DNA of 64,000 nt from Sphaerodactylus townsendi (Eukaryota), in the NCBI RefSeq assembly GCF_021028975.2, contig NC_059429.1:22196001-22260000 (forward strand), read 5' to 3'. Positions within the stretch are counted from its first letter, which is position 1, and every line of letters begins with the position of its first letter. The position numbers and the translations under genes are program-made. The notes under the pieces are model-generated. The model saw only the letters and a program-made list of their open reading frames with translations. It did not search any database and was not told where the DNA came from. Below are positions 13,595-64,000 of this stretch, one piece after another.

Positions 13595-14415
13595 ATGAAC
13601 TGTAATCTCTCAAGGCTGGAGCTGCTTGCCAGGATAATGGCTGCAAGTGTGACCCTGTGTGGAAATAATTCAGGCTAGGAGACTTCTGGTTTGTTTGGTG
13701 CGTAACTGATTAAAGGGACTCAATCCTTAATGCAGGCTGAAACACTGCCCCTTGTGATTCATTTGATTTGGGGGAACAGATGTGGACAGATTTCTGCCAT
13801 TAGTTTGGTACAGCACCATTCTTTCACAGGATACTTTTAAGATCTATTCAGGTAAGTAGCCATGTTGGTTTGAAGAAGCAGGAAAAAAGTTTGAGTCCAG
13901 TGGCACCTTTAAGACTAACCAAGTTTTATTCTTGGTATAAGCTTTCATATGTTGGGATCTGAGGAAATGTGCACACACACAAAAACTTATATGAAAAATA
14001 AAACTTTGTTAGCCTTAAAGGTGCCACTAGATGCAAACTTTTTTCAGGATACTTTTAAGAATGTTAGAAGAGCCGTGTACATCCTGTCCAGCATCCTGTC
14101 TCCCACAGCAGCTGACCACATGCTCTGGAAAGTCTATAAGAAAAGCATGAAGAAAACAGCTCTCTTCAGCAGTGTGCAGCCCTAGTAACAGATATTCAGA
14201 AATAGAATGCCTCTGAGTGTGGAAGTTCCATTTAGTCAAGGCTAGTTCCATTTAGTCAAGGCTATTTATTTTTTTATTTGCCACAGCACTTACCAAACAC
14301 ATGCACAAAATACCATAGTTTAAACTCTCAAATGAGGACTGTCAATAATAAATGAAAACTACATTACTCAAATGCAGACCTAACTACAGCCATCTCCAAC
14401 TGCCTCCTGAAGATC

Positions 14416-22741: not shown

Positions 22742-23182
22742 ATGTTTTCAATTGCGCTGCTCGTAGCTTCCCCTGCAAGGATGGGGGCCAGGTGCCGCTT
22801 TGCCTGAGATGTGATGGGAAGCCGGATTGCGCAGATGGCAGTGATGAGAGCAGTTGCGGTGCCGGAACTGCCTCGTGTGCACCTGGTGAATGGCAGTGTG
22901 GCGGTGGAGGCCCTTGCCTGCCCTTGGAGCAGCTCTGCGATGACTACCTGGACTGCCTGGACATTTCCTACGAACTGGCTGCGGCTTGTGAGAACCAGAC
23001 AGCCCAGGCCAAAGTGCCCCTCCCTTCCCCTGCCTGCTCTGAAGAGGAGTTCCAGTGTGCTCCAGGGGCTTACTGTTTCCCCCTGGAGTGGTGGTGTGAT
23101 GGCCATCCAGATTGTGTCAGCCAGCTGGATGAACAGAACTGCAGTTTGAATTTGCCGGCATCTTCAGTGGCAACTAAGATTG
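22742..23182 (+). CDS. CD320: CD320/Tva exon 2 encoding three LDL-receptor class A modules
   Basis: Acceptor tttctctctcggcag; modules ending CDGKPDCADGSDESSC, CDDYLDCLDISYELAAAC and CDGHPDCVSQLDEQNC; 441 nt, phase 1-1. The donor GTGGGG is weak, so the 3' end is less sure. Position next to NDUFA7 matches CD320. Confidence 0.85.
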
Positions 23183-23578
23183 GTGGGGCAAATGGCTGGC
23201 TGTTTTGGGGGAAGGGGCAGGGAGGTGTTCGGTGTGGGGGTCTTGGCTCATACTGCTGCAGTTTTTTTGCCTGTTCCAGAATGCCTTTGCTTTTTGTCTG
23301 CTCTGTACAGCTGCATCAGCCCTTCCCTTGAGGTACATCTTCCTTACATTTGGTTCTGTTGCCCTTCTTGGTGCCATCCTCTTTTCTCTGAGGCCCAGTT
23401 TACACATGCAAGAGGAACGATGTGGTAGAACAGACTGTCCTGCTTTGGATCACTGGTGGAAGATCACATGGTGGCACACTTCTGAATGTAGGAAGCTCCC
23501 TGTGCTTAGAAACCCAGCAGAGCAAGCAAAGAGATTTGGTAGAGCCATTCCCCTTGCTGTGATAGTCTGCTGTGATAG

Positions 23579-33000: not shown

Positions 33001-33301
33001 GAAGGCTCTCCTTTCTGAAATAGCTCCTCGACAAAAGGTTAACTCCATAATCTTATTAACGTTTTAAGAAGCTGCCGTCCAGTCTCTCCATCACAAGTTC
33101 CATGGCTTGGTTTGAGAAGCAGCCGGCTCGGGCATTTGCCAGCTGGCTGGGCATGCCCTTGCCAGCCCTTAGAGAACTTCTGGGATTCTTCTCCACGAAC
33201 ATACATCTCACGGGAACAGAATAGTGATTCTCCTGAACTGACCCCCACCCCAACTGGTGGCAGCAGCAGAAGGACTATTGGGTGAGGCAGCACTAGGTAC
33301 C

Positions 33302-34552
33302 ATGAGGCAAGCCACGAAGAGGCGCTTGAGCCTCTCGGCCAACATGAAAATCGGGGACATTTGCAAAGGTTGCCAGGACCCCGACAAGGAGGAAGTGTAC
33401 ATCCCCTTTGCCCAGGAACATCTGGTGAAGCGATGGGGTTCGCTAACCAACTTAGCCGATCAGAAGCAGGAGGGAATCAACATCCCACCCCGGCGGAACC
33501 GATTTGTCCTCAACCTCAACGTTGGGGGGAAATGTTTCCAGGTCGCCTGTAAGATGGCTGCTAAGTACCCAAAGACAAGGATTGGCCAGCTGGCCCTGTC
33601 CAAGGACCATACGAAGAAAATGGAACTTTGCGACGACTACTCGGTGCTGAAGAATGAATACTTCTTTGACCGTGACCCGCTCATGTTCCACTACGTCTTC
33701 CACTTCTACCGTAGTGGGGTTATGTGGGTCCTGGAAGAGTTCTGCCCATCCAACTTCGTCGACGAGATCGAGTACTGGGGCATCCACATCAAATACACCC
33801 AGAGGTGCTGCCGCATCCTCTTCGAGGAGAAACAGGACGAGCTGGCCGACTACCTCAAAATCCAACGGGAGTTGGAAGCGGAGCTGGAGCCGCTGAGAAA
33901 GGGGGAGCACTTTGATGGGAAATGCATGGGCAAGTTCCGCAAGGCAGTCTGGAACCTGATCGAGAACCCGTACTCCTCCATCCCTGCCAAGATCATTGCC
34001 GTCATGTCCAGCGTATTTGTCCTCATCTCCATCGTCGGGATGACACTGAGCACTGTCGAGGAGATGCAGCACAAGAGCAGCAAGAATTACTTGGAGCAAA
34101 CGGAGACCATCTGTGCCATCTTCTTCACCCTGGAGTACCTCATGCGCCTCATTTCCACCTCCAGCTTCCAGCAATTCCTGCGGGCGGCGTTCAGCGCCAT
34201 TGACCTGGTGGCCATCATGCCCTTCTATATCCAGATACTCTTTGAGAACCTGGGCGAGGGGGACACGGAGTACCACGAGGAGCTGCACAAGATGCGCAGC
34301 GTGGGCAAGCTGGGGAAGGTGCTCAAGCTGATCAAGCTGATGCGCATCTTTCGCATCCTCAAGCTGGCCCGCCACTCCACGGGCCTGAGGGCCTTCGGCT
34401 TCACCATCCGGCAGTGCTACCAGCAGGTCTGCTGCCTCTTCCTCTTCATTGCCATGGGCGTCTTCACCTTCTCTGCCCTGATGCATTCGGTGGAACACGA
34501 TGTCCCAGGCACGGACTTCACCAGCATCCCTGTGACCTGGTGGTGGGCTGCG
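33302..34552 (+). CDS. KCNV2L: KCNV2-like (Kv8.2-like) silent voltage-gated K+ channel subunit, exon 1 (T1, S1-S5, pore helix)
   Basis: accATG; T1 motifs LNLNVGG, EYFFDRDP, KYTQRCCRI; S4-S5 [29 protein letters not shown] is KCNV2-type; phase-0 donor WWWAA|GTAAGT. Confidence 0.92.
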
Positions 34553-34684
34553 GTAAGTCATTGTCCCCTCTTTTTATCTACGTACATCTAATCTATTTGT
34601 GATAGACAGCAGCTCCCCAGGGCTTGGTCAGAGAAGGGCATTTCCCTTCACTTCCTCTCTGAGATAATAAAACTGCAAGGATTG

Positions 34685-35350
34685 CCATGCCCTTATATAA
34701 AGCCGTGGTGCAACTGCACTTGGAGTACTGTGTTCAGTTCTGGTCGCCACATCTCAAAAAGGATATTGAAGAGATAGAAAAAGTGCAGAGAAGGGCAACG
34801 AGGATGATTGAGGGACTGGAGCACCTTCCTTATGAGGAGAGGCTGCAGCATTTGGGACTCTTTAGTTTGGAGAGGAGATGGCTGAGGGGGGATATGATTG
34901 AAGTCTATAAAATTATGCATGGGGTAGAAAATGTTGACATTTCTCTCTTTCTCACAATACTAGAACCAGGGGACATACATTGAAAATGCTGCGGGGAAGA
35001 ATAAGGACTAATAAAAGGAAACACTTCTTCACACAACGTGTGATTGGTGTTTGGAATATGCTGCCACAGAAGGTGGTGATGGCCACTAACCTGGATAGCT
35101 TTAAAAGGGGCTTGGACAGATTTATGGAGGAGAAGTCGATCTATGGCTACCAACCTTGATCCTCCTTGATCTCAGATTGCAAATGCCTTAGCAGACCAGG
35201 TGCTCAGGAGCAGCAGCAGCAGGCAGCCATTGCTTTCACATCCTGCACGTGAGCTCCCAAAGGCACCTGGTGGGCCACTGCGAGTAGCAGAGTGCTGGAC
35301 TAGATGGACTCTGGTCTGATCCAGCAGGCTAGTTCTTATGTTCTTATGAG
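34685..35350 (+). mobile_element. CR1 LINE 3' fragment (RT C-terminus and 3' UTR)
   Basis: LYKAVVQLHLEYCVQFWSPHLKKDIEEIEKVQRRATRMI...LGLFSLERRWLRGDMIEVYKI; ends in (ttcttatg)n. Confidence 0.95.
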
Positions 35351-36107
35351 ATCCTTTCACTGGGGGTGTTGCCAGGAAATCAACCTGGGGCCATCTGTGT
35401 TCAATGGCTACTGCTGCACAGAGCCGCTTTCCTCCGAGTGGATCATACATGAAGGTCCCATATACCAAGTTAGACCATTGGTCTATCTAGCCCAAATTGG
35501 CATCATCCTTTCCAAAGTCATAGGAAAGTCCTTCCCCATATCTGCAGCCAGCACACTTTTTTGTCTAGAAGTTGCTGTGCATTGAGCCTGGGGCATTCTG
35601 TGTGCCGGCTATTTGCTATTGACCTGCTCCGTGAGAGATATCTTCATGGTTGTGCTTGTAATGCCATTGTCATTTATGGGGAGATGCACGTCCGGGGAAA
35701 AGGCAGTGAGGTTTTCCCCACTTCAGATTCCTCAGCAACAAAAGTTGGACTCAATAAATCAACTAGTTCAGGCCTTTCCTGCTGTTGGCTCCATGTATGC
35801 TATGTGGTTTGAGAGGGGGAAGAGATTGGGAGGGAATCCTCTGTCTGGGTATGGACTTTGAAGGAAGAGTGAACACTTTTAGACCATATGTGATGCCTTG
35901 CATGTAAGGGGGGGGGGGTAGATTGAGACCTGGCTAGGAGGAACTGCAGATGGGAGGGGGAGGATGGCATTCTATGTCTCAGAAAAAGATGTTAGTAATT
36001 GTATATTCCTCCGCCACAGAACTCAACATGCTGGACTTCCTTTGTTATAGAATGTAAGTCGTGGTGCCTACCTAGTCCTGCTCCCACCATCCGTTTGAAA
36101 GTAAAAA

Positions 36108-36245
36108 TACATAGAATCATAGAGTTGGAAGAGACCGCAAGGACCATCAAGTCCAACCCCCCTGCAATGCAGGAACACACAATCAAAGCATCCCTGACAG
36201 ATTCAGCCTTTGTTTAAAAACCTCCAAAGAAGGAGACTCCACCAC
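36108..36245 (-). mobile_element. CR1 3' end fragment
   Basis: catagaatcatagagttggaagagacc tail; matches 37770-37905. Confidence 0.8.
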
Positions 36246-36534
36246 ATCTTGGCGTTCAGTTTAATTATACAACATCCACCCAACCTTATTCACACCTTGC
36301 ACGAAATAATGGTTTTGACAAAGGCACCATTCAAAAATGAATGAGAATTCTCATATTTGCTCGGGACTATATTCTAATGCAGAAGCATACAATTTTCTTG
36401 ACCGCTGCACCTCAACTGACCATACTAACATGTTTATCTGAGACAGAATATAGTGGAATTTACGGAGGTTTCTGATCATTATCCTAGCAGTATTCTTCTG
36501 ATCTAGCAGTATTCTTCTGATCATTATCCTAGCA

Positions 36535-36642
36535 CCGTGGTTGCGAACCTTTGGCACTCCAGATGTTGTGGACTACAATTCCCATCAGCCCCTGCCAGCA
36601 TGGCCAATTGGCATCTGGAGTGCCAAAGGTTCCCCACCACTG
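36535..36642. mobile_element. hAT-type MITE (internally deleted)
   Basis: Inverted termini; perfect 8-bp TSD TCCTAGCA. Confidence 0.85.
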
Positions 36643-37047
36643 TCCTAGCAGTATTCTTCACCGTCCTAGATAGACCTGATCTAACAGGGTTTTGCTAAGG
36701 TTCTTATTAAAAGAAGGCCAGCAATGTTCATGGAAGAGGGTAGAAAAATCTATCCAGGGTTCCTTGTCATGGTGGTTCAATGGAATCTGCATTTTCAGGA
36801 ATCAAGCTCCCTTTTTTGCCAGTTGCTAAGGGACAAATGACAGAAAATGGCTGTTTCCTCCATACCCTGTTTTCCCGACAACATCTCGTTGGGACCCACT
36901 GGAAAGAGAATGCTGGGTGAGATGGGCACACTTTGGCCTGATCCAGCATGCCTCTTCTCAGTGCTCACTCAGAAGAGTTTATTCTCTTGGTACAAACAAT
37001 AAAGCAAGTGGATCTCTCATTCTTCCCTTCTCCTTGTCCTCTCTCAG

Positions 37048-37596
37048 GTCAGCCTCTCCACCGTGGGCTACGGGGACACTGTGCCGGACACTGTGCTGGG
37101 CAGGATGGTGGCCTTTGCGTGCATCTCTTTTGGCATCATCCTCAATGGGATGCCCATCTCCATCCTCTACAACAAGTTCTCTGACTATTACGCCAAGCTC
37201 AAGTCCCACGAGTCTGAGGCCACCAAGTCGCTCAAGCTGACTCGGAAGCTCCGCCTGAAGGAAAGAGCTTGGCAGAAGTTCCTGGTGAGTTGCTGCCCAG
37301 AGGACTACCTCTCCTGCCCGCCGGCAGCAGGTCACCCCAGCGGCCAACATTTTGTGCCTCAGTCTGGCCACCTGGAATACCCGGTTATCCACCAGCCACA
37401 GCACGGTCACCAGCCACTGCGTTCTGCTCCTCATTCCCCCTGTTCTCATAGCTACCGCTGTCACCACTCTTCTTCCCCCTACAGGGGTCAGCATGCCCAC
37501 CTGGCAATTCCCCCCCTGCTCCTATCACGATCTGGCTCTCCTACCCCTCAGCCGTCACCCCGCCCATCGTCACAAGCAAGACACTCTGTCTTGTAA
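37048..37596 (+). CDS. KCNV2L: KCNV2-like subunit, exon 2 (selectivity filter, S6, C-terminus)
   Basis: Acceptor ttgtcctctctcag; [10 protein letters not shown] filter; S6 [21 protein letters not shown] as in KCNV2; TAA at 37594-37596; protein ~599 aa. Confidence 0.9.
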
Positions 37597-38464: not shown

Positions 38465-38872
38465 CCCCTCCTCTTGCATGCCACCCCTCACTCACTCCCC
38501 TCCCTTGCATGCCACCCCTCTCCCTTTCCTCCCTCCACCAGGGTGGGTGGGCCAGGTCTAGATGCCAAACCCTCTCCCCTCCCCTGCATGCCACTCCTCA
38601 CTCCCTCCCTTGCATGCCACCCCTCCCCCTCCCACCACTAGGGTGGGTGGGCCAGGTCCAGATGTCATCCCCCTCCCCTCCCTTGCATGCCACCCCTCCC
38701 TCCCTTGCATGCTACCCCTCACTCACTCCCCTCCCTTATTCCCTTTCCCTTGCATGCCACCCCTCCCCCTCCCTCCCCTCCACTAGGGTGGGTGGGCCAT
38801 GTCCAGATGCCGGGGCCCCTCCCCCTCCCTTGCATGCCACCCCTCACTCCCTCCCCTCCCTCACTTCCCCCC
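38465..38872. repeat. C-rich compound minisatellite
   Basis: About eight copies of ccttgcatgccacccctc and three copies of ccac(c/t)agggtgggtgggcca(g/t)gt(c)cagatg. Confidence 0.9.
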
Positions 38873-39121
38873 TAATTATTTGATTAGGGTATCATAAGCT
38901 GTTACGCTTCCTGTCCCCCTTGACTTAAATCCGAGTCACCAGGTAACTAGTCCGCCTGCAAAGTATATGCTCCTGATCTTCAACTGAACCCGAGCCTTCC
39001 CTGTAACTCTGGGCAATTAGGGGCAATGTATTATATGAATTCTTAATTGTGGCCTGTAGGTCAATGCAGCTGAGTTGTTCAATGCTAGCAGAATACCTTT
39101 TAATTAATTCAACTTAAAACT

Positions 39122-41914: not shown

Positions 41915-42310
41915 ATTGTCGAAGGCTTTCACGGCCCGATTCAACTGGTTCTGGTGGGTTTTCTGGGCTGTGTGGCCATGGTCTGATCACGTGCAAGTGT
42001 CAAACTCGTGACCCTCCAGATGTTATGAACTACAGTTCCCATCATCCCCTGCCAGCATCTGGAGGGTCACGAGTTTGACACCTATGGATCTTGTTCCCAA
42101 CGTTTCACCTGCATCTGTGGCTGGCATCTTCAGAGATGTATCACAGAGAAAAGTCTGTTTCACACTGTGCCTAGTGTCTAGACACAATGTGAAACAGACT
42201 TTTCTCTGTGATACACCTCTGAAGATGCTAGCCACAGATGCAGGCGAAACGTTAGGAACAAGATCCACCAGACCACGGCCACGCAGCCCGGAAAACCCAC
42301 CAGAACCAGT
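41915..42310. mobile_element. Palindromic Penelope-derived element with a nested hAT MITE (~41994-42087)
   Basis: Long inverted repeat centred near 42175; flanked by a 12-bp direct repeat TGATACAAGTGT (41903-41914 and 42311-42322); hammerhead motif in each arm. Confidence 0.75.
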
Positions 42311-43399: not shown

Positions 43400-44145
43400 C
43401 CTCCAGTGGAATCTACCCCCAAACAGCATCACTTTCAATGGTGTTTAAACTAGGGAGCCAAAATTCTTCTTTTAAATCAGGGGTAGGGAACCTGCGGATT
43501 TCCAGATGTTCAGGAACTACAATTCCCATCAGCCTCTATCAGCATGGCCAATTGGCCATGCTGGTTGAAAGCTGATAGAGGCTGGATTGTAATTCCTATC
43601 TAGGCACCGATTCCTATTTAAATCCACCTTAAAGGGAGGATCTGGGGTCCCCAGTTAAAACAACATTGAAAGTGATGCTGTTTTGGGGTGCAACAGCATC
43701 ACTTTCAATGTTTAAACTGAGGACCTCACATTCTCCCTTAAAGTCCATGCCAAAGGGGGTGGATTTAAAAGGAGAATCTGGGGAAATTTGGGGGGTGCCT
43801 GCTGTCAGGGGTGCAATTGTTAAGCTAGCAGCACCAAACTTTCAGGGGATCTTTAGGAGACTCTCCTGGTGATACCAGCCACGTTTGGTGAAGTTTGGTT
43901 CAGGGGGTCCAAAGTTATGGCCCCTCAAAGGTGTAGCCCCCATCTCCTATTAGCTCCCATTGGAAACAATGGGGGATGGGGCACCCCTTTTGGGAGTCCA
44001 TAACTTTGGACCCCCTGAACCAAACCTTACCAAATCTGGGTGGTATCATCAGGAGGGTCATCTGAAAAAATCCCTGAAATTTTGGTGTTGCTAGTCTAAA
44101 AACTGTGCCCCCTGCAGGCCAAAAACGGAAAAAACACTTTAAAAT
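43400..44145. mobile_element. Interspersed repeat, internal part of a probable non-autonomous DNA transposon, with a partial MITE at 43478-43597
   Basis: 43640-44125 is closely similar to 59797-60390. Confidence 0.7.
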
Positions 44146-44586
44146 TGCCATGAAATTTCCACTTTAATTTTCTCCTCACTGGAGCTACAACAGTGCCATC
44201 TGCTGTTCAGGAATTGACAAAGAAGAGGAACAATATTTCCCTGTTTCACAGCAATATTATGCTTTCTTCACAAGTATATCGTGATGTGAATTTTTAAAGA
44301 AAAAAACACCTTTTGAACATGTTCAGGAAGAAGCTTACTTGACCATTCACATTGCTGAAATCAGTGAAATACTGAGGATGAACTTTGCAGGGGGGGGGGG
44401 GGGCGAATGTTTCCCTACAGCACTGAACCCAGGGGAATAGCCCGTGTGGAAATGACCAAAGTCGTAATTCTTAGGTCTGATTTGAGGATAAAATATCTGG
44501 TTAAACCATAATAATTGGAAGAAGTCTCAAGCTCAGTCTACCCTCCAGCCTTGGTCCCTCACTTCCTGAAAGATGTTCATCTATAT

Positions 44587-44734
44587 CAGGGGTAGGGAAC
44601 CTGCGGCTCTCCAGATGTTCAGGAACTACAATTCCCATCAGCCTCTGTCAGCATGGCCAATTGGCCATGCTGGTAGGGGCTGATGGGAATTGTAGTTCCT
44701 GAACATCTGGAGAGCCGCAGGTTCCCTACCCCTG
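44587..44734. mobile_element. 148-bp palindromic hAT MITE
   Basis: Near-perfect palindrome; 8-bp TSD ATCTATAT; identical by eye to 48123-48270. Confidence 0.93.
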
Positions 44735-45806
44735 ATCTATATATAAGAGTTCCCTCTTATATGGACCGGGGCACAGGATCCCAGGTAGGCCTGCATTCAA
44801 ATAAATGCAGAAGGCTACTCTTGAATAAGGGGAATTGGTTCAAAGATTATGAAACCAAGATCAGAAACACTGAAGATTTGCTGCTGTTGTTGCTGCGTTC
44901 CACCCCCACCCCCTGGGAGCAGTTGAACCCCGTCTCCTTTCCGCTACAGCAGTTACCATTGAGGAAGACTTCCCTTCCCACAGGGGTACAGGCAGGGGGG
45001 CATGCTGCCTTACCTCAACCATTATAATTATCACTCAACCATTATAATTTTCACTTGAAAGGGGGGACACTTGATTCCTCCCCAATTCTAAGCCCAAACA
45101 AATGAGACCCAAGCACCCTTCAAACATTTGCCTGAGGAAAATGAAACCGAATGAAAGAGAAAGATGGCCTTTCTCTCGCTCAAACAGCCAACCACTAATT
45201 CTTATTTTGTGAAGGGCAAAAAAGGCCATAAAAGCACAACTGGATGGTTACAAACTTTTTATTCTTAAAACGACTCTTCAGCAGAAGGAACTACACATGC
45301 TTGAACTTAATTAACATAAGAAAATGGAGGGGGTAAAGTAGAAACAAGGAATGGTTTTACAGTGACTGTCAAGTACCTAAATAACCAACCTAAAGAAAGC
45401 AAGTATCATTTAGGGGAAGTAAGAAGTCCTAATACCCTACAAAAACATCACATTTACAGGAGCAAAGCTTTAGGAAGAAGTAATCACACATGCAACAAAA
45501 CAGGGCGGAAGAATGCCAAGGCTTTTGAAGGGATTGTGTCATTTCAGACTACACGTGGCCATCACAGTTTCAATGCCACCCGTTGCAAAACAACCATAAA
45601 AACAGAAAGAAGAAAACAAGGAGAGCAGCTACAACTTTTCTTCCATAAGAAGGTAGCTCTCATGAAATTGGAAATAGCACATTCCACCCTGTCATTTTGC
45701 AGCATTTGGCAGAATGATGCAATTCCCAACACAGTTTCTCAGTATTTTAAGACAGGTAAACACCATTATCACAAAACCCTATGACCAGCAATCTCCATAT
45801 CAAGTC

Positions 45807-46985
45807 CTATGGCTGAACTACTTTGTGAATTCCTTCATGCCTCCTTAAGGTGCCTGATTCAGCAAAAGACTGGCCACAGTAGGCACAAGAGTAAGGTTTT
45901 TCTCCTGTATGGGTACGCTGATGGCGGCGCAGTGAAGCAAGGCGCGCAAAGGCACTGCCACATTCTTTGCAGAGGAAAGGGCGCTCACCAGTGTGTGTCT
46001 GCTGATGCTTTTTCAGCCTCGCCAGTTGAACAAAAGTCATGCCGCATTGGTGACACTGGTTCGGCTTTTCCTTTTTGTGGCTTAGCTTGTGCCTGGAAAG
46101 CAAACTGGCTTTACTAAAAACTTTGCAGCATACTGGGCATTGGTAGTGCTTGGAACTACCTTCTCTGGGGTTTCGGGTGGCACCGCCCACCTGCCCAGGG
46201 TTGCGGCTTTGAACCTGGCTCTGATACAGAACAGACCAAGGGTTCTTGACATTAGCATCTCCCAGAACAACACCGGAGCGACTGATCTTGTGAAAGCTGT
46301 GGAGATGTCTCCAGACATCAGCGGTGCGGATGAAACCCTTGTCACATTCTGGGCACTTGTGTGGTCTGTCTGTGGAATGGGTCAGTCGGTGCATCCGTAA
46401 GTTAGCGGAGCGGAAAAACTCTTTGCCACAGACTGGGCACCAATACGAACATCCAGCGGCGTATTTCTTTTTGTGCTCCTCTAACCGACAGAGGTCTTGG
46501 AATGATTTCCCACACCTCTCACAGTGGTAAGGCAAAACTTGGCTCAGCCGAGGCGGCAGATTCTCATCATCAAGAGAGTCAACAAGGATGATGAAGTTCT
46601 CCTCCTCTTCCTTCAGACCTCCCTGAAGATGTGAGGAATGCCCAGATGACCAGAGTTCCAGATCCTTACATTCACAAAGGTAATTACAAGTGGTGCTTGG
46701 GACATAGACACCATTTCTGGCCAACCTCCATTTTCGGCAGTAGGTTGACATTTTTGCAGATGTGCTCACAGAATTTTCATCTTCTGAACAGGGCAGAACT
46801 AGAGGAAGATCCGGTTCATCTGAAGATGCAGGAAGGATGCCACTGAGATTGGAAGGGGGCGGGTTGACTTCCTCTATCTCTAGCAGTAGGATGGGCTTAT
46901 CATTTATACAATCAGCAGCTGAATTGGTTATTGTGGTACTGCAGGCATCCTTTTCAGCCACACGAACCCCATACATTTCCATCAT
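45807..46985 (-). CDS. C2H2 zinc-finger protein (392 aa; 3+4 fingers; no KRAB or SCAN domain visible)
   Basis: Six intact fingers plus one degenerate finger (HKKKY); linkers TGERPF, TGEKPY and STDRPH; acceptor ttctttccatag at 47038; in-frame TGA 9 nt before the ATG; AATAAA (-) at 45258-45263. Confidence 0.9.
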   Translation of the reverse strand: MMEMYGVRVAEKDACSTTITNSAADCINDKPILLLEIEEVNPPPSNLSGILPASSDEPDLPLVLPCSEDENSVSTSAKMSTYCRKWRLARNGVYVPSTTCNYLCECKDLELWSSGHSSHLQGGLKEEEENFIILVDSLDDENLPPRLSQVLPYHCERCGKSFQDLCRLEEHKKKYAAGCSYWCPVCGKEFFRSANLRMHRLTHSTDRPHKCPECDKGFIRTADVWRHLHSFHKISRSGVVLGDANVKNPWSVLYQSQVQSRNPGQVGGATRNPREGSSKHYQCPVCCKVFSKASLLSRHKLSHKKEKPNQCHQCGMTFVQLARLKKHQQTHTGERPFLCKECGSAFARLASLRRHQRTHTGEKPYSCAYCGQSFAESGTLRRHEGIHKVVQP

Positions 46986-47990: not shown

Positions 47991-48122
47991 TTTTACTTTT
48001 TATTTTGTGATAGCCACTAGCCATGGTGGCTAAAGGCAATCTTTCCCCTGAAGGCCAATGTTAAGTAGTGATGTTAGGGGAAGGTTATGACCTCTATTGT
48101 GCTGTTTGTTGTTCCTCCAGGG

Positions 48123-48270
48123 CAGGGGTAGGGAACCTGCGGCTCTCCAGATGTTCAGGAACTACAATTCCCATCAGCCTCTGTCAGCATGGCCAATTGG
48201 CCATGCTGGTAGGGGCTGATGGGAATTGTAGTTCCTGAACATCTGGAGAGCCGCAGGTTCCCTACCCCTG
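48123..48270. mobile_element. 148-bp palindromic hAT MITE
   Basis: 8-bp TSD CTCCAGGG; identical by eye to 44587-44734. Confidence 0.93.
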
Positions 48271-48744
48271 CTCCAGGGCAACTGATTGGCTTCAGGAAGA
48301 AAAAAGAAGCTGGTCAAAACAAGCTACAGATCTGATCCAACAGGGCTCTTCTTATCAGCACAGTTGTCAACCACCTGTAGGAAAAATTGACCCTGTGCAT
48401 TAAATACAGGTTTATTTCCATCCCATGAACTGCTTTAGCTGCACATTTCTACACACTAAGCTTCTATTAAAGGGGCAACACTACTACAGGCAAAGAAGTT
48501 GAACCCAGCAATATTTACTCAACATTCATCCTAAGCAAAATTTAACAGTGCGGTCCTATGCAGTTACTCTAATCTATCAAAAATATCATGTGAAAAGCAT
48601 GAAAAAGAAAACAAAACTGAATCCCAAGGTGTTGATATTCTGAAAGTGTCTCAGAAATCAGCAGAGCATGCAGCTCAATGCTGTGGTCTAGCTAAGAGGG
48701 CTACCGTATCCCTCCTCTTGACCACTACTCACAACGTTCTTAGA

Positions 48745-50718: not shown

Positions 50719-50863
50719 CTGCGGTGGCGAACCTTTGGCACTCCAGATGTTATGGACTATAATTCCCATCAGCCCTTCCAGCATGGCCAATTGGCCATGT
50801 TGGAAGGGGCTGATGGGAATTGTAGTCCATAACATCTGGAGTGCCAAAGGTTCGCCACCACGG
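50719..50863. mobile_element. Palindromic hAT MITE
   Basis: Inverted arms; perfect 8-bp TSD CCTTACAG. Confidence 0.9.
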
Positions 50864-55729: not shown

Positions 55730-55878
55730 GCAGGGGTCTGCAACCTGCGGCTCTCCAGATGTTAATGGACTACAATTCCCATCAGCCCTTGCCCGCATGG
55801 TCAATTGGCCATGCGGGCAGGGGCTGACGGGATTTGTAGTCCATGAGCATCTGGAGAGCCGCAGGTTGCAGATCCCTG
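55730..55878. mobile_element. Palindromic hAT MITE
   Basis: caggggtctgcaacctgcggctctccagatg ... catctggagagccgcaggttgcagatccctg. Confidence 0.85.
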
Positions 55879-56249
55879 CGAGTCATGACCTTTTCAAGCT
55901 GCCTTGAGCAACGAAGAAAAGTAGCATATATTTTAATAAAGTCAACCCAGAGCTCTCCCCACCTGTAGCCCATCCTGTCCCCTTTCTCAGCAGAAGGAAA
56001 CTGTTCCACAGGGGAGAATGTCTGCCAGTGCAGCGTTTCTCCCCCACTGTCCGACTCACCACGCTCGCTTACATCCCCTCTTCTGTTGAATGCATTTTTA
56101 TTCAGCCCTCCCTCCCTCCCTCCCTCCAAGAAGCACCCTGTTCTCCTTTCCCCGTTTTACCTTCACAACAGTCCTGCAGTAGAAGACACTGAGGGGAAAA
56201 TGACTGAACTACGGGAGACCAACCCAACATTTATGGCCCGCCCCTTTCT

Positions 56250-57900
56250 GCCCTCAGGACGAACTCCAACCCAGCAGACCCGCCGACCCCGACAGTTGCC
56301 GCTTCTCCCCATTCCCCGGCTCCGACCCGGCCCTTTTTCTTTGGTGGGGGGGGGGCGCGCCAGTTTTCTCAACCCCCTCCTCGCGCTCCTTGCTCCGGGG
56401 CGTCAAGCAGTCGACCTCTTTCCCCACCTCCCCACCAGGCTCCCTTGGGCGACCGCCTGTGTGCTGCTCCCCACAGTTCTAAGGGGGCTGCCAGCTATCA
56501 ATGGTGCTCGCCCGCTGAACCTCCCCTCGGGGGCTCATTGTCTCCCGCAGCCTCCTGCGCATACCTGGTTTCAGCACGCGAGTCTTGAGTGCAAGAGGTG
56601 CCCAGGCGAGCGCAAAGCCCCGCGCGACCCGCCCTTGTGCCCACCCGCACCGGCGCGTCCAGGTGCTTCTGGGCAGAAAGGGCAGGTGGGCCGTCCCATC
56701 TCCGTCCAAGGGCGTGTCCACCCCTCCATGGGCAATCAGCCGTTCGGGTTGCCCTTGAAGCCACGCTCCCTGGTCCGCGGAATGAGAAGATTCGGCTCTG
56801 GGGAGGCCTGGTCTGCAACCGGGGGCGTATCTACGAAAAATGGAGGGGGAGGGGAAGCTGAGTTTTGCGCTTTTATAGTTATAGAACTATAGTTATAATT
56901 CTCATCGTGATAACCATTGTTATAACGTTCTCAGACAGCTGACACTGGCAGCAGCCCCTTCCCCGGTTCCACCCCCCCCCCCCCAAGGCCCCCTGAGCCT
57001 GCTGTGGTTAGCAGGGCCGTTGCGATCGGTATATCGATCGCTATACCGATCGGTATAATGATCGCTATACCGATCGGTATATCGATCGTTATACCGATAG
57101 ATATAACGATCGATATACTGATCAGTATAACGATCGATATAACGATCGGTATAGCGATCATTATACCGATCGGTATAGCGATCGATATAACGATCGTTAT
57201 ACTGATCGCAACGGCCCTGCTAACCACGGAAGGCTGAGGGGGCCGTGGTCCGGGGGAGGGGCGCTGGGAAAGGGGTCGGCTCTCCCGAGCACTGTGGGTT
57301 GGGTGCTGGGCGCCGATTGGCCGACGCGCGGGCATTGGCGCAGGAAGCCGCCCGGTGGTTGCCTGAGGCGCGCGGCGCCCTGCTCGGGGCCAGGGGGGCC
57401 GGCTGCTGGAGCTCAGAAGAGCGCGAGGGGAGCGGGGCGCCGGGCGCGCCTGCAGCGGGGCCGAGGGCAGAGGGGTTCGCGCACGGGCGGCGGGGGAGGT
57501 GGGCTCCCGGGCAGAGCGGGAGGGAGGGAGGGAGGCCCGCGGAGGTGGCGGCGCTGCGTCCTGGCCGAGCTGAACTTGAACTCTGGCCCCGCCAGAAGGG
57601 AGGGCAAGATCGCCGCCGCCGCTGGGCTCGGGCTGGCGGGATCCTAGCGCCGTTGCAGCCTGGCAGGGGGAGAGCCCCCAGGAAGCCTTGCAGAGCGCCA
57701 GGGAGGCGGGCGGAGCGGGGGGCTCGTGAATGGGGGCCAAGGTTGGCAGACGGGTGGTCACCGGGCAAGAGGGAGGGGTCGCCCGGCTTGCAGGAGGCGT
57801 GGGGTGAACTGGCCCCAGAGAGGGGGGAAGATGGGCCAAGGGGATGGAGGAGAAACCCTGCCGACTGTGTGCAAGGGGGCAGCCAGACATCTGGCTTGGT
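56250..57900. promoter_or_regulatory. CpG island, probable promoter of the minus-strand ZNF gene
   Basis: Very high GC and CpG content; ATTGG boxes at 57316 and 57334; minus-strand donors CAG|GTATGC at 56564 and GTG|GTGAGT at 56059. Confidence 0.6.
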
Positions 57901-58446
57901 GCAGCGGCTACTAGAGCGCCTGGCTAGCTAGGATCTGAGTTCAGATGCCCCACCCCACGTGGGGCTTGCAAGGGTGAGTCTGGGTCAGGCCTCCTCTCTC
58001 CGTCTAACCAGCCCCACAGAATAAAACAGGAGTCCAGTGGCACCCGAAAGGCTGACTGCATTTATTCCAGCATCAGCCGCTGCTGGCTTCCTGAGATGCA
58101 CTGAATTTTTTAAAAAGGGGGAGGGGGTTAACTCTTTGGGGCCAGCCCAAAACAAGAGCTGATTGGGTCAGATGTGAGACCCTCTCCACTATCTACTGGA
58201 CTTCCCCTCTGGTGCCTCTGCTGATCTGAAACTTCCTGATGGTTAGTCTCTAACAGGTTTGTTTTATTCTGCTGCTTGTCTCCAGCTGAGCTGCCTCATA
58301 GGTTTGTTGTGAGGCTAAAAGGGGGGACGGAGAACCAGGTGTGCCCGGTTCCCCATTTCCACCGAGAGATGTCCACTTCAAGAGGACATGGGGACAACTG
58401 GGCCACTCCGGGGGCATGTGGTGGGCCCAGATGAAACTGTTCTGGG
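56895..58446 (+). repeat. Local segmental duplication, copy A
   Basis: Colinear with 62256-64000 from ataattctcat to cccagatgaaactgttctggg; may extend further because copy B runs off the window. Confidence 0.93.
56983..57248. repeat. Fold-back A: 40-bp inverted arms enclosing a 12-bp palindromic array
   Basis: Sixteen CGATCG-type cores alternate with 15 NTATAN spacers (57023-57208); arms 56983-57022 and 57209-57248 are complementary with 4 mismatches. Confidence 0.95.
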
Positions 58447-58751: not shown

Positions 58752-60499
58752 CAGAGGCGTACCTAGGCAAACTGGAGCTCTGGGCAAAACCTGAGCTTGA
58801 TGCCCCCCCAATGGGCAGCCCCCCTGCCCCACCGTGACCAAACAATGGTTTTTTACACCAGGTCGTTTCAAAGTCACCACCACATTATAGAGCATGCCCC
58901 AACTCACAAATCTGAACACAGCAATGGGCCATGCCACACAGCAGAAATAATTTTTGGAAAACATTTTCAAAAGGCTTTCAAAATGTTTTATTAGTGCTTT
59001 GAAAAAATTTCATGGTGTTGTATCCAGTCCCCCCAATTGGGGGAAACAGCATCACTTCCAAAGTTATTTAAACTGGGCACCCCAGATTCTCCCTTTAAGG
59101 TGGATTTAAAAGGAGAATCTGGGCTCCCTAGTTTAAACATGTGATGCTGAAATCCACCCCCCCAGAACAGCATCATTTTCAATGGTGTTTATACTAGGGA
59201 GCCCAGATTCTCCTTTTAAATCCACCTTAAAGGGAGAATCTGGGGTCTATCTGAATATGGACCGAAAAAATCACGTGACGCACGTGTGCTGCGCAGTGGC
59301 TTATGTGTTTTACAATTATAAATTACAATATCTAGACATACATAAAATGCAATTGCTATAATAAATGTTCTTTTTCATTACAGATATCTCCAATGGGAGA
59401 ACTTCAGTAACTCCGATGTATACAGTATCTTCCTTCGTTGTTGTTAACAAGGCTACTGCTTTAGCTGTTGTCTCTTTTCATGTGTATTGGATGTCGAATC
59501 GGTGACTCAATCTTTAAGTCTTTAAGCTCATGAATTGTTTTCCTCAAGGTGTAAACATAATCACCACTTTCATGAATGGATACAATGTTACCATCACAGC
59601 ATCTCCCTCTGGAGTATTGTTAAGAGGCGATTAAAGGAGCCATACATCTGAGTCAACATTGCAGAAGCTACATGCGTTTGTTAGCTTTTCGACTGCCTTC
59701 ATCAGTGCTCCATTCCTAGTCTTCTTCCCTGAATCGCTTCTCTCCAGAGTCTCTCCTCTGCTGAGTTTGTTCTCTTTCTTATTTACAACACACGTCACTG
59801 GGGTCCCCAGTTTAAACAACATTGAAAGTGATGCTATTTTGGGGTGGATTCTTCCCCATCCTGAAACAGCACCTCTTTCAATGTTAAAACTGGGGACCTC
59901 AGATTCTCCCTTTAAATCCATGCCAAAGGGGGTGGATTTAATAACAACAACAACAACAACCTTTATTAGGCATTGAGAGAATAAAAGAAAGAAAGAAAAC
60001 AAGCATTGGCAGTAAGGGAGTGGATTTAAAAAAGAGAATCTGGGGAAATTTAGGGGGTGCCTGTTGTCAGGGTGCAATTATTAAGATAGCAGCACGAAAA
60101 TTTCAGTGTACCTTTGTGAGACCCTACTGATGATACCGCCCATGTTTGGTGAGGTTTGGTTCAGGGGGTCCAAAGTTATGGACCCTCAAAGGTGTAGCCC
60201 CCATCTCCTATTAGCTCCCATTGGAAACAATGGGGGATGGGGGCACTCCCTTAGGGAGTCCATAACTTTGGACTCCGTAAACCAAACCTCACCAAACCTG
60301 GGTCATATCATCAGGAGAGTCTCCCAAAAATCCCTGAAATTTTGGTGCTGCTAGCCTACAATCTGCACCCCCTGCAAGCCAAAAACAAAACCCACTGAAA
60401 ATACAAAATCCCCCACAAATGAACCTGCAATTTTGTCGCCCACCACAAGGTGGCGCCCTGGGCAGCTGCCCACTTTGCCCAATGGGAGGAACGCCTCTG
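58752..60499. mobile_element. Probable hAT-type non-autonomous composite element
   Basis: Termini cagaggcgt / acgcctctg; interior shares blocks with 43400-44145; no TSD seen. Confidence 0.5.
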
Positions 60500-60850: not shown

Positions 60851-61108
60851 TTTGGTGCACACAACAACACGCACTGGGATCTAACTTCAATGCAAGAGAA
60901 AGCATTGATATAATAAGAAATAAGTAATGTTGAGACATTACTTAACATTAATATATATTAGAGATGGAACAGGCATTTGGTGCACATGACAACACGCACT
61001 GGGATCTAACTTCAATGCTGTATGGAGTGATCCTTTGATAGATTTAGAGATAAGTAATGTTGAGACATTCCTCAACATTAATATATGTTAGAGCTGTAAC
61101 AGGCATTT
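60851..61108 (+). repeat. Two-copy ~130-bp tandem duplication
   Basis: tttggtgcaca...caacacgcactgggatctaacttcaatgc...taagtaatgttgagacatt...aacaggcattt at 60851-60975 and 60976-61108. Confidence 0.9.
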
Positions 61109-62255
61109 CTCCCTCACAGCTGATGGGTTCCTGTTCCTGGGAATGTATTTAAGTCATGAAGATTCTGCTGCCTTACTTACACTTTAGTGGCCTCTACACA
61201 GCACTCAAAGGAAAAGATTTCACATTACCAATATTTAATGACCTTTCCACTGGAAGCAATTACTTATTACCAATCGGTACATAAAGCCCACATTTTCTGG
61301 TTAAAAAATGGCTTATATGTATTTACAGCCAAAATAGCATTATTTTTGTCAGCGACAAGATATGTCCAGAAACCTCCTGGCCGTTCTACGGTAAGAATTC
61401 ATGCAAAAAAGCTTGCAGAGGTGTGTGTTATACTGACCCCAGAAGAAAAACCCCCGTTATGTTTTTTTCTGGTCCTCTCAACCGTTGAGTTCCTAGCGGA
61501 GAACACCCGTGCGACGCATCAAAATACAGGAACCACCATCACTTACCCCATTCTGTGCAGACGGGACACGGACAAAGCCAGATCTTCTTCTGTTTGCTGG
61601 GAATCTCTCTGGAACAGGTCTCAGCTGCAGAAGCCTCCTTTCCTTTTCCTCCTAAAAACACAAGGCCAAGGTGAAGGTGGCTAGAGATACTCTGGAAAAC
61701 TCCCCCCCCACCCCACCAGCATGTCCTTCTCTGGTTACTCTAGCCCAGGGATCTGCAACCTGTGGCTCTCTCTCCAGATGTTCATGGACTACAATTCCCA
61801 TTAGCCCCTGCCAGCATGGCCAATTGGTGCCACTGACCCCCCCCGGCCCGGAGAACAGGGCTGCTGCTTGGGGGGCTGGACTCGGGACGACATGCTGCTT
61901 TTCTCCCCCAAACGCCTCCCCCACCTGGCCTGGGTCCCCCGGGACCCCTGCCCCCCCACGTCCCTCCACCAGACCAGGCCACCCTGAAGGCCGTCTTCGC
62001 ACAAGACCGCAGGTGGATGTGATGGGGTGATTCCGCTAACTTCCCAAGCCTCGTTGAGCTGGCAGCCAGTTTGGCGATGGAGCCCAGAGCCCAGGGTGGC
62101 CTTTCCCAGGCGCCCCCTTCGTACGAGGCCGCACGTCCAGGTTGTGGCGTGTCATGGGAGTCTCTTTGGGCAGGGGGGGGCCGCTGCTGCCCTCCAGTGG
62201 CCAAAGTCATGAATGACAAGGGCCAACCTCCACCTCCCCTTGCATTTCTCAGGTG

Positions 62256-64000
62256 ATAATTCTCATGGTTTTAACCATTGTTATAAGGTTCTCAGACAGT
62301 GGATACTGTGCTGACATTGGCAGCAGCAGCAGCCCCTTCCCCGCTCCCCCCCCCCACCACGGCCCCTTGAGCCTGCCGTGGTTAAAAGGGCTGTTGCCAC
62401 CATTATAGCGATCGTTATAGCGATCACTATAGCGATCGTTATACCGATCGTTATAGCGATCGCTATATCGATCGGTATTACGATCCGTATTACGATCGTT
62501 ATAACGATCGTTATAACAGTGGCAACGGTCCTTCCAACTACGGCAGCCTCAGGGGGCCGTGGTCCGGGGGACGGGCGCCGGGAAAGGGATCGGCTCTCCC
62601 GAGCACTGTGGGTTGGGTGCTGGGCGCCGATTGGCCGACGCGCGGGATCTGGCGCAGGAAGCTGCCCGGTGGTCGGCTGATCGCGCGGCGCCCTGCTCGG
62701 AGCCAGGGAGGCCGGCTGCGGGAGCTCAGAAGAGCGCCAGGTGAGCGGGGAGCTGGGCGCGCCTGCTCGGGGCTGAGGGCAGAGGGGCTGGCGCGTGCGA
62801 TGGGGGAGGTGCGCGTGCTCGTGGGCTCCCGGGCAGAGCGGGAGGGAGGGAGGCCCGCGGAGGCGGCGGCGGCGGCGGCGCTGCGTCCTGGCCGAGCTGA
62901 ACTTGAACTCTGACCTCGCCAGAAGGGAGGGCAAGATCGCCGCCGCCGCTGGGCTCGGGCTGGCGGGATCCTAGCGCTGCTGCAGCCTGGCAGGGGGAGA
63001 GCCCCCAGGAAGCCTTGCAGAACGCGAGGGAGGCGGAAGGGGGGGTGAATGGGGGCCAAGGTTGGCAGACGGGTGGTCACCGGGCAAGAGGGAGGGGTCG
63101 CCCGACTTGCAGGAGGCGTGGGGTGAACTGGCCCCAGAGAGGGGGGGAAATGGGCCAAGGGGATGGAGGAGAACCCCTGCCGGCTGTGTGCAAGGGGGCA
63201 GCCAGCTATCTGGCTTGGGGCAGCGGCTACTGGAGTGTCTGGCTATCTAGGATCTGAGTTCAGATGCCCCACTGTGGGGCTTGCAAGGGTGAATCTGGGT
63301 CAGGCCTCCTCTCTCAGTCTAACCAGCCGCTCAGAATAAAACAGGAGTCCAGTGGTGCCCAAAAGGCTGACTGCATTTATTCCATCATCAGCCGCCACTG
63401 GCTTCCTGAGATGCATTGAATAAAGAAAAAAAGTGTGTGTGTGTGTGTGGGGGGGGGGGGTTAACTCTTTGGGATAGCCCAAAACAAGAGCTGATTGGGT
63501 CAGTCGTTAGATGTGAGACCCTCTCCGCTATCTATCAAGGTGTGCCTATAGATGAGCTGGATGGACTTCCCCTCCGGTGCCTCTGCTGAACTGAGTTCTG
63601 GCTCCCGAAACTTCCTGATGGTTAGTCTCTAACATTTGATTAGTCTCTGTTTTATTCTGCTGCTTGTCTCCAGCTGAGTTTGTTGTGAGGCTAAAATGGG
63701 GGACGGAGAACCAGGTGTGTCTCTCTGAGCTCCTTGCAGCGAGGGTGCGCTACACAGGCCTTCAAGGGGTGCGTGTTTGGCCCAAACAGCCAGGCTGGCA
63801 TCCGGGCAATGGGGCGGAGACAGAAGACACTGGAGGCAGCCAGGACACCGAGGTCGATCAGGCTGGAAGCACTGGTGGGGCAGGTGATGAGCACGTGCCT
63901 GGTTCCCCATTCCCACCGAGAGATGTCCACTTCAAGAGGACATGGGGACAACTGGGCCACTCCGGGGGCATGTGGTGGGCCCAGATGAAACTGTTCTGGG
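62256..64000 (+). repeat. Local segmental duplication, copy B (CpG island; runs off the window)
   Basis: Colinear with 56895-58446; several indels, including ~180 extra bp near 63720-63895. Confidence 0.93.
62357..62562. repeat. Fold-back B: 44-bp inverted arms enclosing a 12-bp palindromic array
   Basis: Nine CGATCG-type cores and 10 spacers (62403-62516); arms ccacggccccttgagcc...gttgccac / gtggcaac...cctcagggggccgtgg. Confidence 0.95.

Follow-up and report, generated by a model that had tools for sequence, protein, structure and literature searches.

The locus and its duplicated segment

The window, by which we mean the whole 64-kb stretch of DNA analyzed here, carries a two-exon KCNV2-like channel gene at 33257-37596, and a KCNV2-like protein of Sphaerodactylus townsendi is 100% identical over the query to its channel ORF (33257-34591). 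An LDL-receptor class A exon lies upstream of this gene in coordinates, at 22792-23331, with LDL-receptor class A repeats recognized by Pfam near 22.8 kb, and we take the order of the two to be reminiscent of the VLDLR-KCNV2 neighborhood. Pfam also identifies a single-exon C2H2 zinc-finger ORF on the minus strand (45807-46985), just upstream of which is an acceptor-like site. Twelve ORFs were scanned, and none over or near the palindromes described below matched a Pfam family; the four with matches all lie elsewhere in the window.

A segment of ~1.45 kb, GC- and CpG-rich, is present twice on the plus strand, at 62253-63719 and, as its paralogue, at 56892-58343. Each segment contains a palindromic element, called copy B and copy A, respectively, and both flanks are common to the two, with 88 of 1073 aligned bases (8.2%) differing in the right flanks. 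About 175 bases of the B side (63720-63894) are absent from the copy A segment, which ends at 58343, and because the missing stretch contains an exon-like sequence (63740-63883), the plus-strand unit of A may be truncated. When the stretch downstream of B that may be a second exon (63737-63883) was searched in one of its three frames, none of 6 candidates was a homologue.

The surrounding sequence suggests that the palindromes lie upstream of transcription starts. A likely promoter and first exon, with function assigned from motifs, occupies 62630-62745 (+) downstream of B, where we take ATTGG at 62630 to be an inverted CCAAT, followed by GGAAG at 62657 and a presumably splice-donor-like CAG/GTGAG at 62738-62745. 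Beside copy A, a likely first exon on the minus strand (56560-56860) has a donor, CAG/GTATG, at 56567 and faces the zinc-finger ORF, to whose acceptor-like site it may be spliced. With this exon on its minus-strand side, copy A would sit between two divergent promoters, that is, within a bidirectional promoter.

Inverted repeats around arrays of a self-complementary 12-mer

In each copy, which lies inside the duplicated segment, inverted repeats flank an array of self-complementary 12-mers. The 40-bp arms of copy B lie at 62361-62400 and 62519-62558, with 4 extra pairs outward to 62357/62562, beyond which pairing fades over ~30 further bases; those of copy A lie at 56987-57026 and 57205-57244. 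The inverted repeats fade outward without a sharp end, and the 40-bp arms present as terminal inverted repeats. The array of B (62394-62525) has 11 units of 12 bp of the form TA-N-CGATCG-N-TA, 9 with GATC cores (62410-62509), and its two outer variant units form a CCAC/GTGG junction. Of the 16 units in the array of A (57020-57211), all have GATC except one, which has GATA. The preliminary description had noted that the array of B is shorter, with 9 cores against 16 units in A, yet the arms still pair, and this is correct. A decayed 12-mer remnant also lies upstream of B at 62263-62290, with its paralogue near 56901-56928.

The consensus over 23 inner units is TA-N-CGATCG-N-TA, and departures from the majority fall largely on the two N positions (30 of 46, compared to 9 of 230 at the other ten positions; P = 9e-21, a value that overstates independence, as the units are related by descent). 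The free half-site position takes all four bases (16, 13, 10, and 7), and the CpGs are intact in 39 of 46 cases. Part of this pattern could stem from a handful of old variants that slippage and inversion have spread. We regard the constraint pattern of the unit as a more curious feature than the both-arm changes to which we now turn.

Differences between the arms of the two copies

Comparison of the 40 arm pairs between A and B reveals 3 both-arm differences and 10 one-arm differences, 3 of the latter in A and 7 in B. The both-arm differences are at arm position 26, where a C-G pair of A (GCAGGG/CCCTGC) is A-T in B, and at positions 38 and 40 of the junction, TTG-CGAT/ATCG-CAA in A and TTG-CCAC/GTGG-CAA in B, all as first described. 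The tally of seven non-Watson-Crick positions in B is likewise accurate, with four G.U on the plus strand (7, 20, 30, and 32), two G.U on the minus strand (24 and 25), and one C.C (12), although it covers the arms only, and the inner array of B adds 9 mismatches in 54 pairs. Left/right mismatches common to A and B number zero in the 40-bp arms, implying that the arms were identical at duplication or have been re-equalized since. The comparison that had been proposed, of arm-to-arm with copy-to-copy divergence, gives 3/40 for the arms of copy A versus 7-9/40 for arms compared between copies.

The excess of both-arm differences in the arms over chance is real. Under independent mutation, the P value for three such sites is 0/40,000 with a per-arm rate of 4%, 0.0002 with 6.25%, and 0.002 with 10%. 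As the junction positions 38 and 40 may be a single event, the signal amounts to two or three events, and for two sites the corresponding values are P = 0.001, 0.006, and 0.028. That the both-arm changes are coincident independent mutations in a fast-changing region is thus most comfortable with two events and the 10% rate, where P reaches 0.028, but coincidence would leave unexplained the 47-bp mirror in the array of A, with its mirrored CpG-decayed core (see below), and we give it only a very slight chance.

The one-arm changes tell a different story for the two copies. In copy A, the perfect pairing of positions 18-41, a run of 24 pairs in the inner arm, holds all three both-arm sites, and the three breaks of A lie outside it (P = 0.064). 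One-arm changes affect 3 of 80 arm bases in A and 7 of 80 in B, against the 4.1% per lineage expected from the flanks (P = 0.046 for B). Pair-breaking changes in the arms are therefore not rarer than neutral changes. The expectation that the arms of B would be less diverged than the flanks fails, its one-arm changes being at or above the flank rate, and the claim that pairing is maintained in copy B is unsupported: in addition to the seven changes, the longest mirror in the array is just 11 bp, and at three of the breaks the pairing letter prevails in other organisms, 62539 in organism D excepted (see below). Copy B is a decaying copy, gathering unpaired changes.

Mirror symmetry of the arrays

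The array of copy A contains a 47-bp perfect mirror, 57030-57076 with its partner at 57143-57189. Within this tract, the mirroring extends to seven free positions and to a core with a decayed CpG (TGATCG/CGATCA). Shuffles of the array have mean mirrors of 23-29 bp, with P = 0.0007, 0.002, and 0.015, the last for shuffles that keep the 24-bp period; this statistic was picked after the data were seen. When the test is centered on the arms, pairing of array A is no better than in shuffles (P = 0.98). A scan places the best mirror center at 57109.5, which is 6 bp, or half a unit, off the arm center at 57115.5, so that a stem needs a one-unit bulge. About 57109.5, the first 76 positions contain only 3 mismatches, and the free letters agree in 10 of 15 pairs (P ~0.015). 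In the predicted DNA fold of A, a single stem with a 12-nt bulge runs through arm and array.

The array of B has no mirror symmetry beyond the self-complementary unit itself. Its longest perfect mirror is attained by every shuffle, and its pairing is no better than that of unit shuffles (P = 0.33). Copy A thus has clustered both-arm changes inside a perfect mirrored tract, the pattern by which template switching or conversion is recognized. A point against arm copying is that A would look no different if selection had kept a hairpin with a 12-nt bulge.

Related copies in other samples and organisms

Four contig sets, from organisms A, B, C, and D, were compared with the window; the depths given here are aligned contig depths rather than copy numbers. 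A contig of a second sample, from the same organism, agrees with the array and right arm of B (62403-62569) at all but one of 167 letters. At three breaks of B, 62529, 62535, and 62539, the pairing letter accounts for all or most of the aligned depth in organisms B and C, and in organism D for 68, 68, and 37.2 of 88.7, counts that are among the best 40 of 229 variant rows and that mix paralogues and possibly both arms. As part of the depth in organism D lacks the pairing letter, not all of the breaks of B need be recent. The B-type junction was found in organism B with its CpG intact, at a loose contig end at 62530, which fits copy A as the derived copy; the variant rows listed do not polarize position 26.

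A contig of organism D (record 26) is 12 letters shorter over 62406-62580, a shift of array length by a whole unit. Arrays A and B have no free-letter register in common, the best being 7/16. Together, these observations indicate that array turnover is fast. At least 1 further copy is present in organism A: second-sample record 1 matches 62183-62316 with 9 other letters, a region that extends left of 62253, where copy A has no similarity. In record 4 of the same sample, arm and array are interrupted by 23 other letters. The array is joined to other spacers or flanks in 12 of the 12 joints listed (the best 12 of 17; organisms A, C, and D), and so it is not confined to this locus. No matches to the array or arm patterns were found in viral contigs, prokaryote genomes, or metagenomes. 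A GC-rich repeat at 62080-62230 is matched by contigs of all four sets (22-36 at 62122), and one joint elsewhere connects the 12-mer array to it; a motif at 62189, within this repeat, is one that we take to be CTCF-like.

These data bear on whether A and B derive from different older lineages of a repeat family, as palindromic subfamilies or through conversion by a third paralogue, such that the both-arm changes predate or bypass the duplication. A and B differ at 16/80 arm bases (20%) compared to 88/1073 in the flank (P = 0.002); simple decay would predict less, and input from a third copy also fits. With the further copy in organism A, third-paralogue conversion or an older split of the element becomes possible, and the presence of the array between other flanks in all joints listed is in keeping with either. 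Both flanks, however, are common to A and B, and no target-site duplication of 3-11 bp is found at the 45 symmetric boundaries of either copy; independent transposition of A and B is therefore unsupported. A pogo-type TA duplication with a CAG end gives 0 matches in the window at up to 3 mismatches (0.94 expected by chance). Arm-to-arm copying, moreover, would still be needed to account for the mirrored free letters of A. We consider descent from older lineages doubtful, though well short of negligible.

Palindromic MITE-like elements as a control

The window also contains a family of palindromic elements of ~150 bp (44585-44736, 48122-48271, 55730-55879, 50723-50859, 36539-36647, and 41997-42081), which, by their anatomy, we take to be MITEs. 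This family shows subfamily-specific both-arm differences, and the elements at 44585 and 48122 have the same three left/right mismatches. As a control, comparison of either of these two (44585-44736 or 48122-48271) with the element at 55730-55879 gives 6 both-arm differences in 72 sites. Both-arm changes in MITEs may be fixed by transposase selection, and hence the control shows only that RNA is unnecessary.

In architecture, copies A and B resemble MITEs that contain tandem repeats internally, for example Donax DTC84, for which the available text (PMC3879986) describes variable tandem palindromic units between inverted-repeat flanks. Unlike that element, as portrayed there, A and B have no target-site duplication or microsatellite and share their flanks.

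Evidence on RNA structure

The preliminary description had attributed the retained pairing to selection on structure or to conversion. The former could mean that the palindrome is transcribed into a long-hairpin or small-RNA precursor whose long hairpin fold selection retains, with compensatory substitutions as the outcome. Several features are in line with a hairpin. The fold is very stable (z = -19.8 on the plus strand and -17.1 on the minus strand), and in copy B, the plus strand folds to -141.2 versus -128.7 kcal/mol for the minus strand. The real unit order folds as RNA somewhat better than unit shuffles, which are as good in 4% (A) and 7% (B) of 300. There are three both-side changes, 93.8% of cells in the A/B pair count are paired with G.U allowed on the plus strand, and the pairing letter is mostly kept at the three arm positions in contigs of other organisms.

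Other results do not favor an RNA hairpin. At these small numbers, the split of G.U between strands is not significant, either for B by itself (4:2, P = 0.34) or when A is added (5:2, P = 0.23), and transitions are 7 of the 10 one-arm changes compared to 50/88 in the flanks (P = 0.51). The G.U tally is uninformative, since any transition in a palindrome leaves a G.U on one of the strands. A covariation pair count on A and B finds 3 both-side pairs, not above shuffles (67/500 as high), although two sequences give such a count little power. In the 64-kb window, Rfam returns 0 matches at the gathering score; 36 sub-threshold matches are to hairpin-shaped models on both strands, the best at 76.7 versus 110 bits, and the MITEs score likewise. 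To this can be added that the array of B has no mirror, that the one-arm change rate of B is no lower than the rate in the flanks, that ordinary MITEs show the both-arm pattern equally, and that the element lies upstream of a CCAAT-like site, with A between two likely divergent promoters. The RNA-structure claim for these palindromes is thus unsupported and selection on RNA structure unlikely; we leave the transcribed hairpin a slight chance. Of the two routes first proposed, conversion, in the form of copying between arms, is supported, mostly by evidence from copy A, and RNA-structure selection is not.

Probable copying between arms

We think it probable that the both-arm differences arose from arm-to-arm copying of DNA, mainly in copy A, as an ordinary mutation process. 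One arm would have been copied from the other at replication, either through intra-palindrome conversion or through template switching; this most likely happened recently in copy A, while B gathered unpaired changes. The self-complementary array may let a strand fold back, in which case a single switch could overwrite one arm with the other, new mutations included, and units would then be gained or lost by slippage, as in the one-unit bulge of A. The pattern seen in copy A would be explained if a single event had copied across its inner arm together with its first units and one unit had then been gained, with a standard unit having overrun the junction. The element, just upstream of a promoter, would then act, if at all, as DNA.

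The both-arm pattern is of a known kind, that of template-switch or conversion tracts in quasi-palindromes. As set out in the portions available of two studies, template switching perfects near-inverted repeats (PMC8794818; PMC5453318) and creates multi-base compensatory changes without selection (PMC8794818). Copies A and B resemble the short-range events described there in that near-perfect inverted repeats are perfected, neighboring both-arm changes occur together, and no selection is needed; they differ in that the loop is a self-complementary 12-mer array that also changes by whole units and in that the event is not placed on a tree (PMC5453318; PMC8794818, as far as their accessible text goes). 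There is also a likeness, as partly sampled from accounts of such systems, to arm-to-arm conversion in large sex-chromosome palindromes, where the arms of one palindrome are closer to each other than is the same arm across copies. Those palindromes, by the same partial accounts, have arms of >10 kb with >99% identity and carry genes, whereas here the arms are ~40-130 bp and 82-93% identical. On this reading, these copies provide a clean natural example of apparent compensatory change made without RNA selection, a caution for covariation arguments on DNA palindromes. A parallel with palindromic promoter repeats of teleost fish was considered and dropped, as no supporting paper was found.

The array as a possible binding platform

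Our literature search found no published description of the 12-mer repeat, which Repbase or Dfam may hold. The motif was not found in the supplements of PMC7325037, and the part of PMC10702118 available to us makes no mention of palindromes in the SINE-derived satellites of reptiles. Read in another phase, the unit is CG-N-TATA-N-CG, which occurs at 14 sites in the window, all within the two arrays. A similar sequence, CG-[T/A/C]-TATAACG, is present in at least 11 TIRs (pogoR, Tigger-like, and Lemi), all invertebrate or fungal, in the accessible rows of supplementary file 3 of PMC7386202, and it is absent from the 15 reptile TIR rows listed there. The array is, in effect, a chain of CG-N-TATA-N-CG and as such is like the inner half of pogo-superfamily TIRs as represented in those rows (PMC7386202), a resemblance in a short motif and nothing further. 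Unlike pogo-superfamily elements, it has no TA-CAG end and no transposase here.

JRK, a domesticated Tigger protein, is reported to retain its binding to Tigger terminal repeats (PMC13538051, in the text available), and in a bird a CENP-B-like binding role has been proposed for TIGD4 (10.1101/2025.10.14.682431, likewise from its available portion). The sequence pattern raises the thought that the array may be a selected multivalent protein-binding platform of pogo/CENP-B-type sites kept at CpG-island promoters of geckos as well as at other loci, in no fewer than 4 organisms, with its self-complementarity renewing it via template switching and a pogo-type DNA-binding protein, whether domesticated or still active, reading it. 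We give this a small chance, and a binding-site array would at present be a lead rather than a result. If true, it would explain why two positions are free and ten near-fixed, including both CpGs, and would represent a promoter-proximal, self-renewing array of transposon-like sites in a gecko.

Other repeats in the window include further long palindromes with 71-100-bp arms, of other repeat families (42085-42267, 60113-60328, 43859-44059, and 13882-14045), a two-copy 130-bp tandem duplication at 60851-61108, and a C-rich complex tandem array at 38465-38880.
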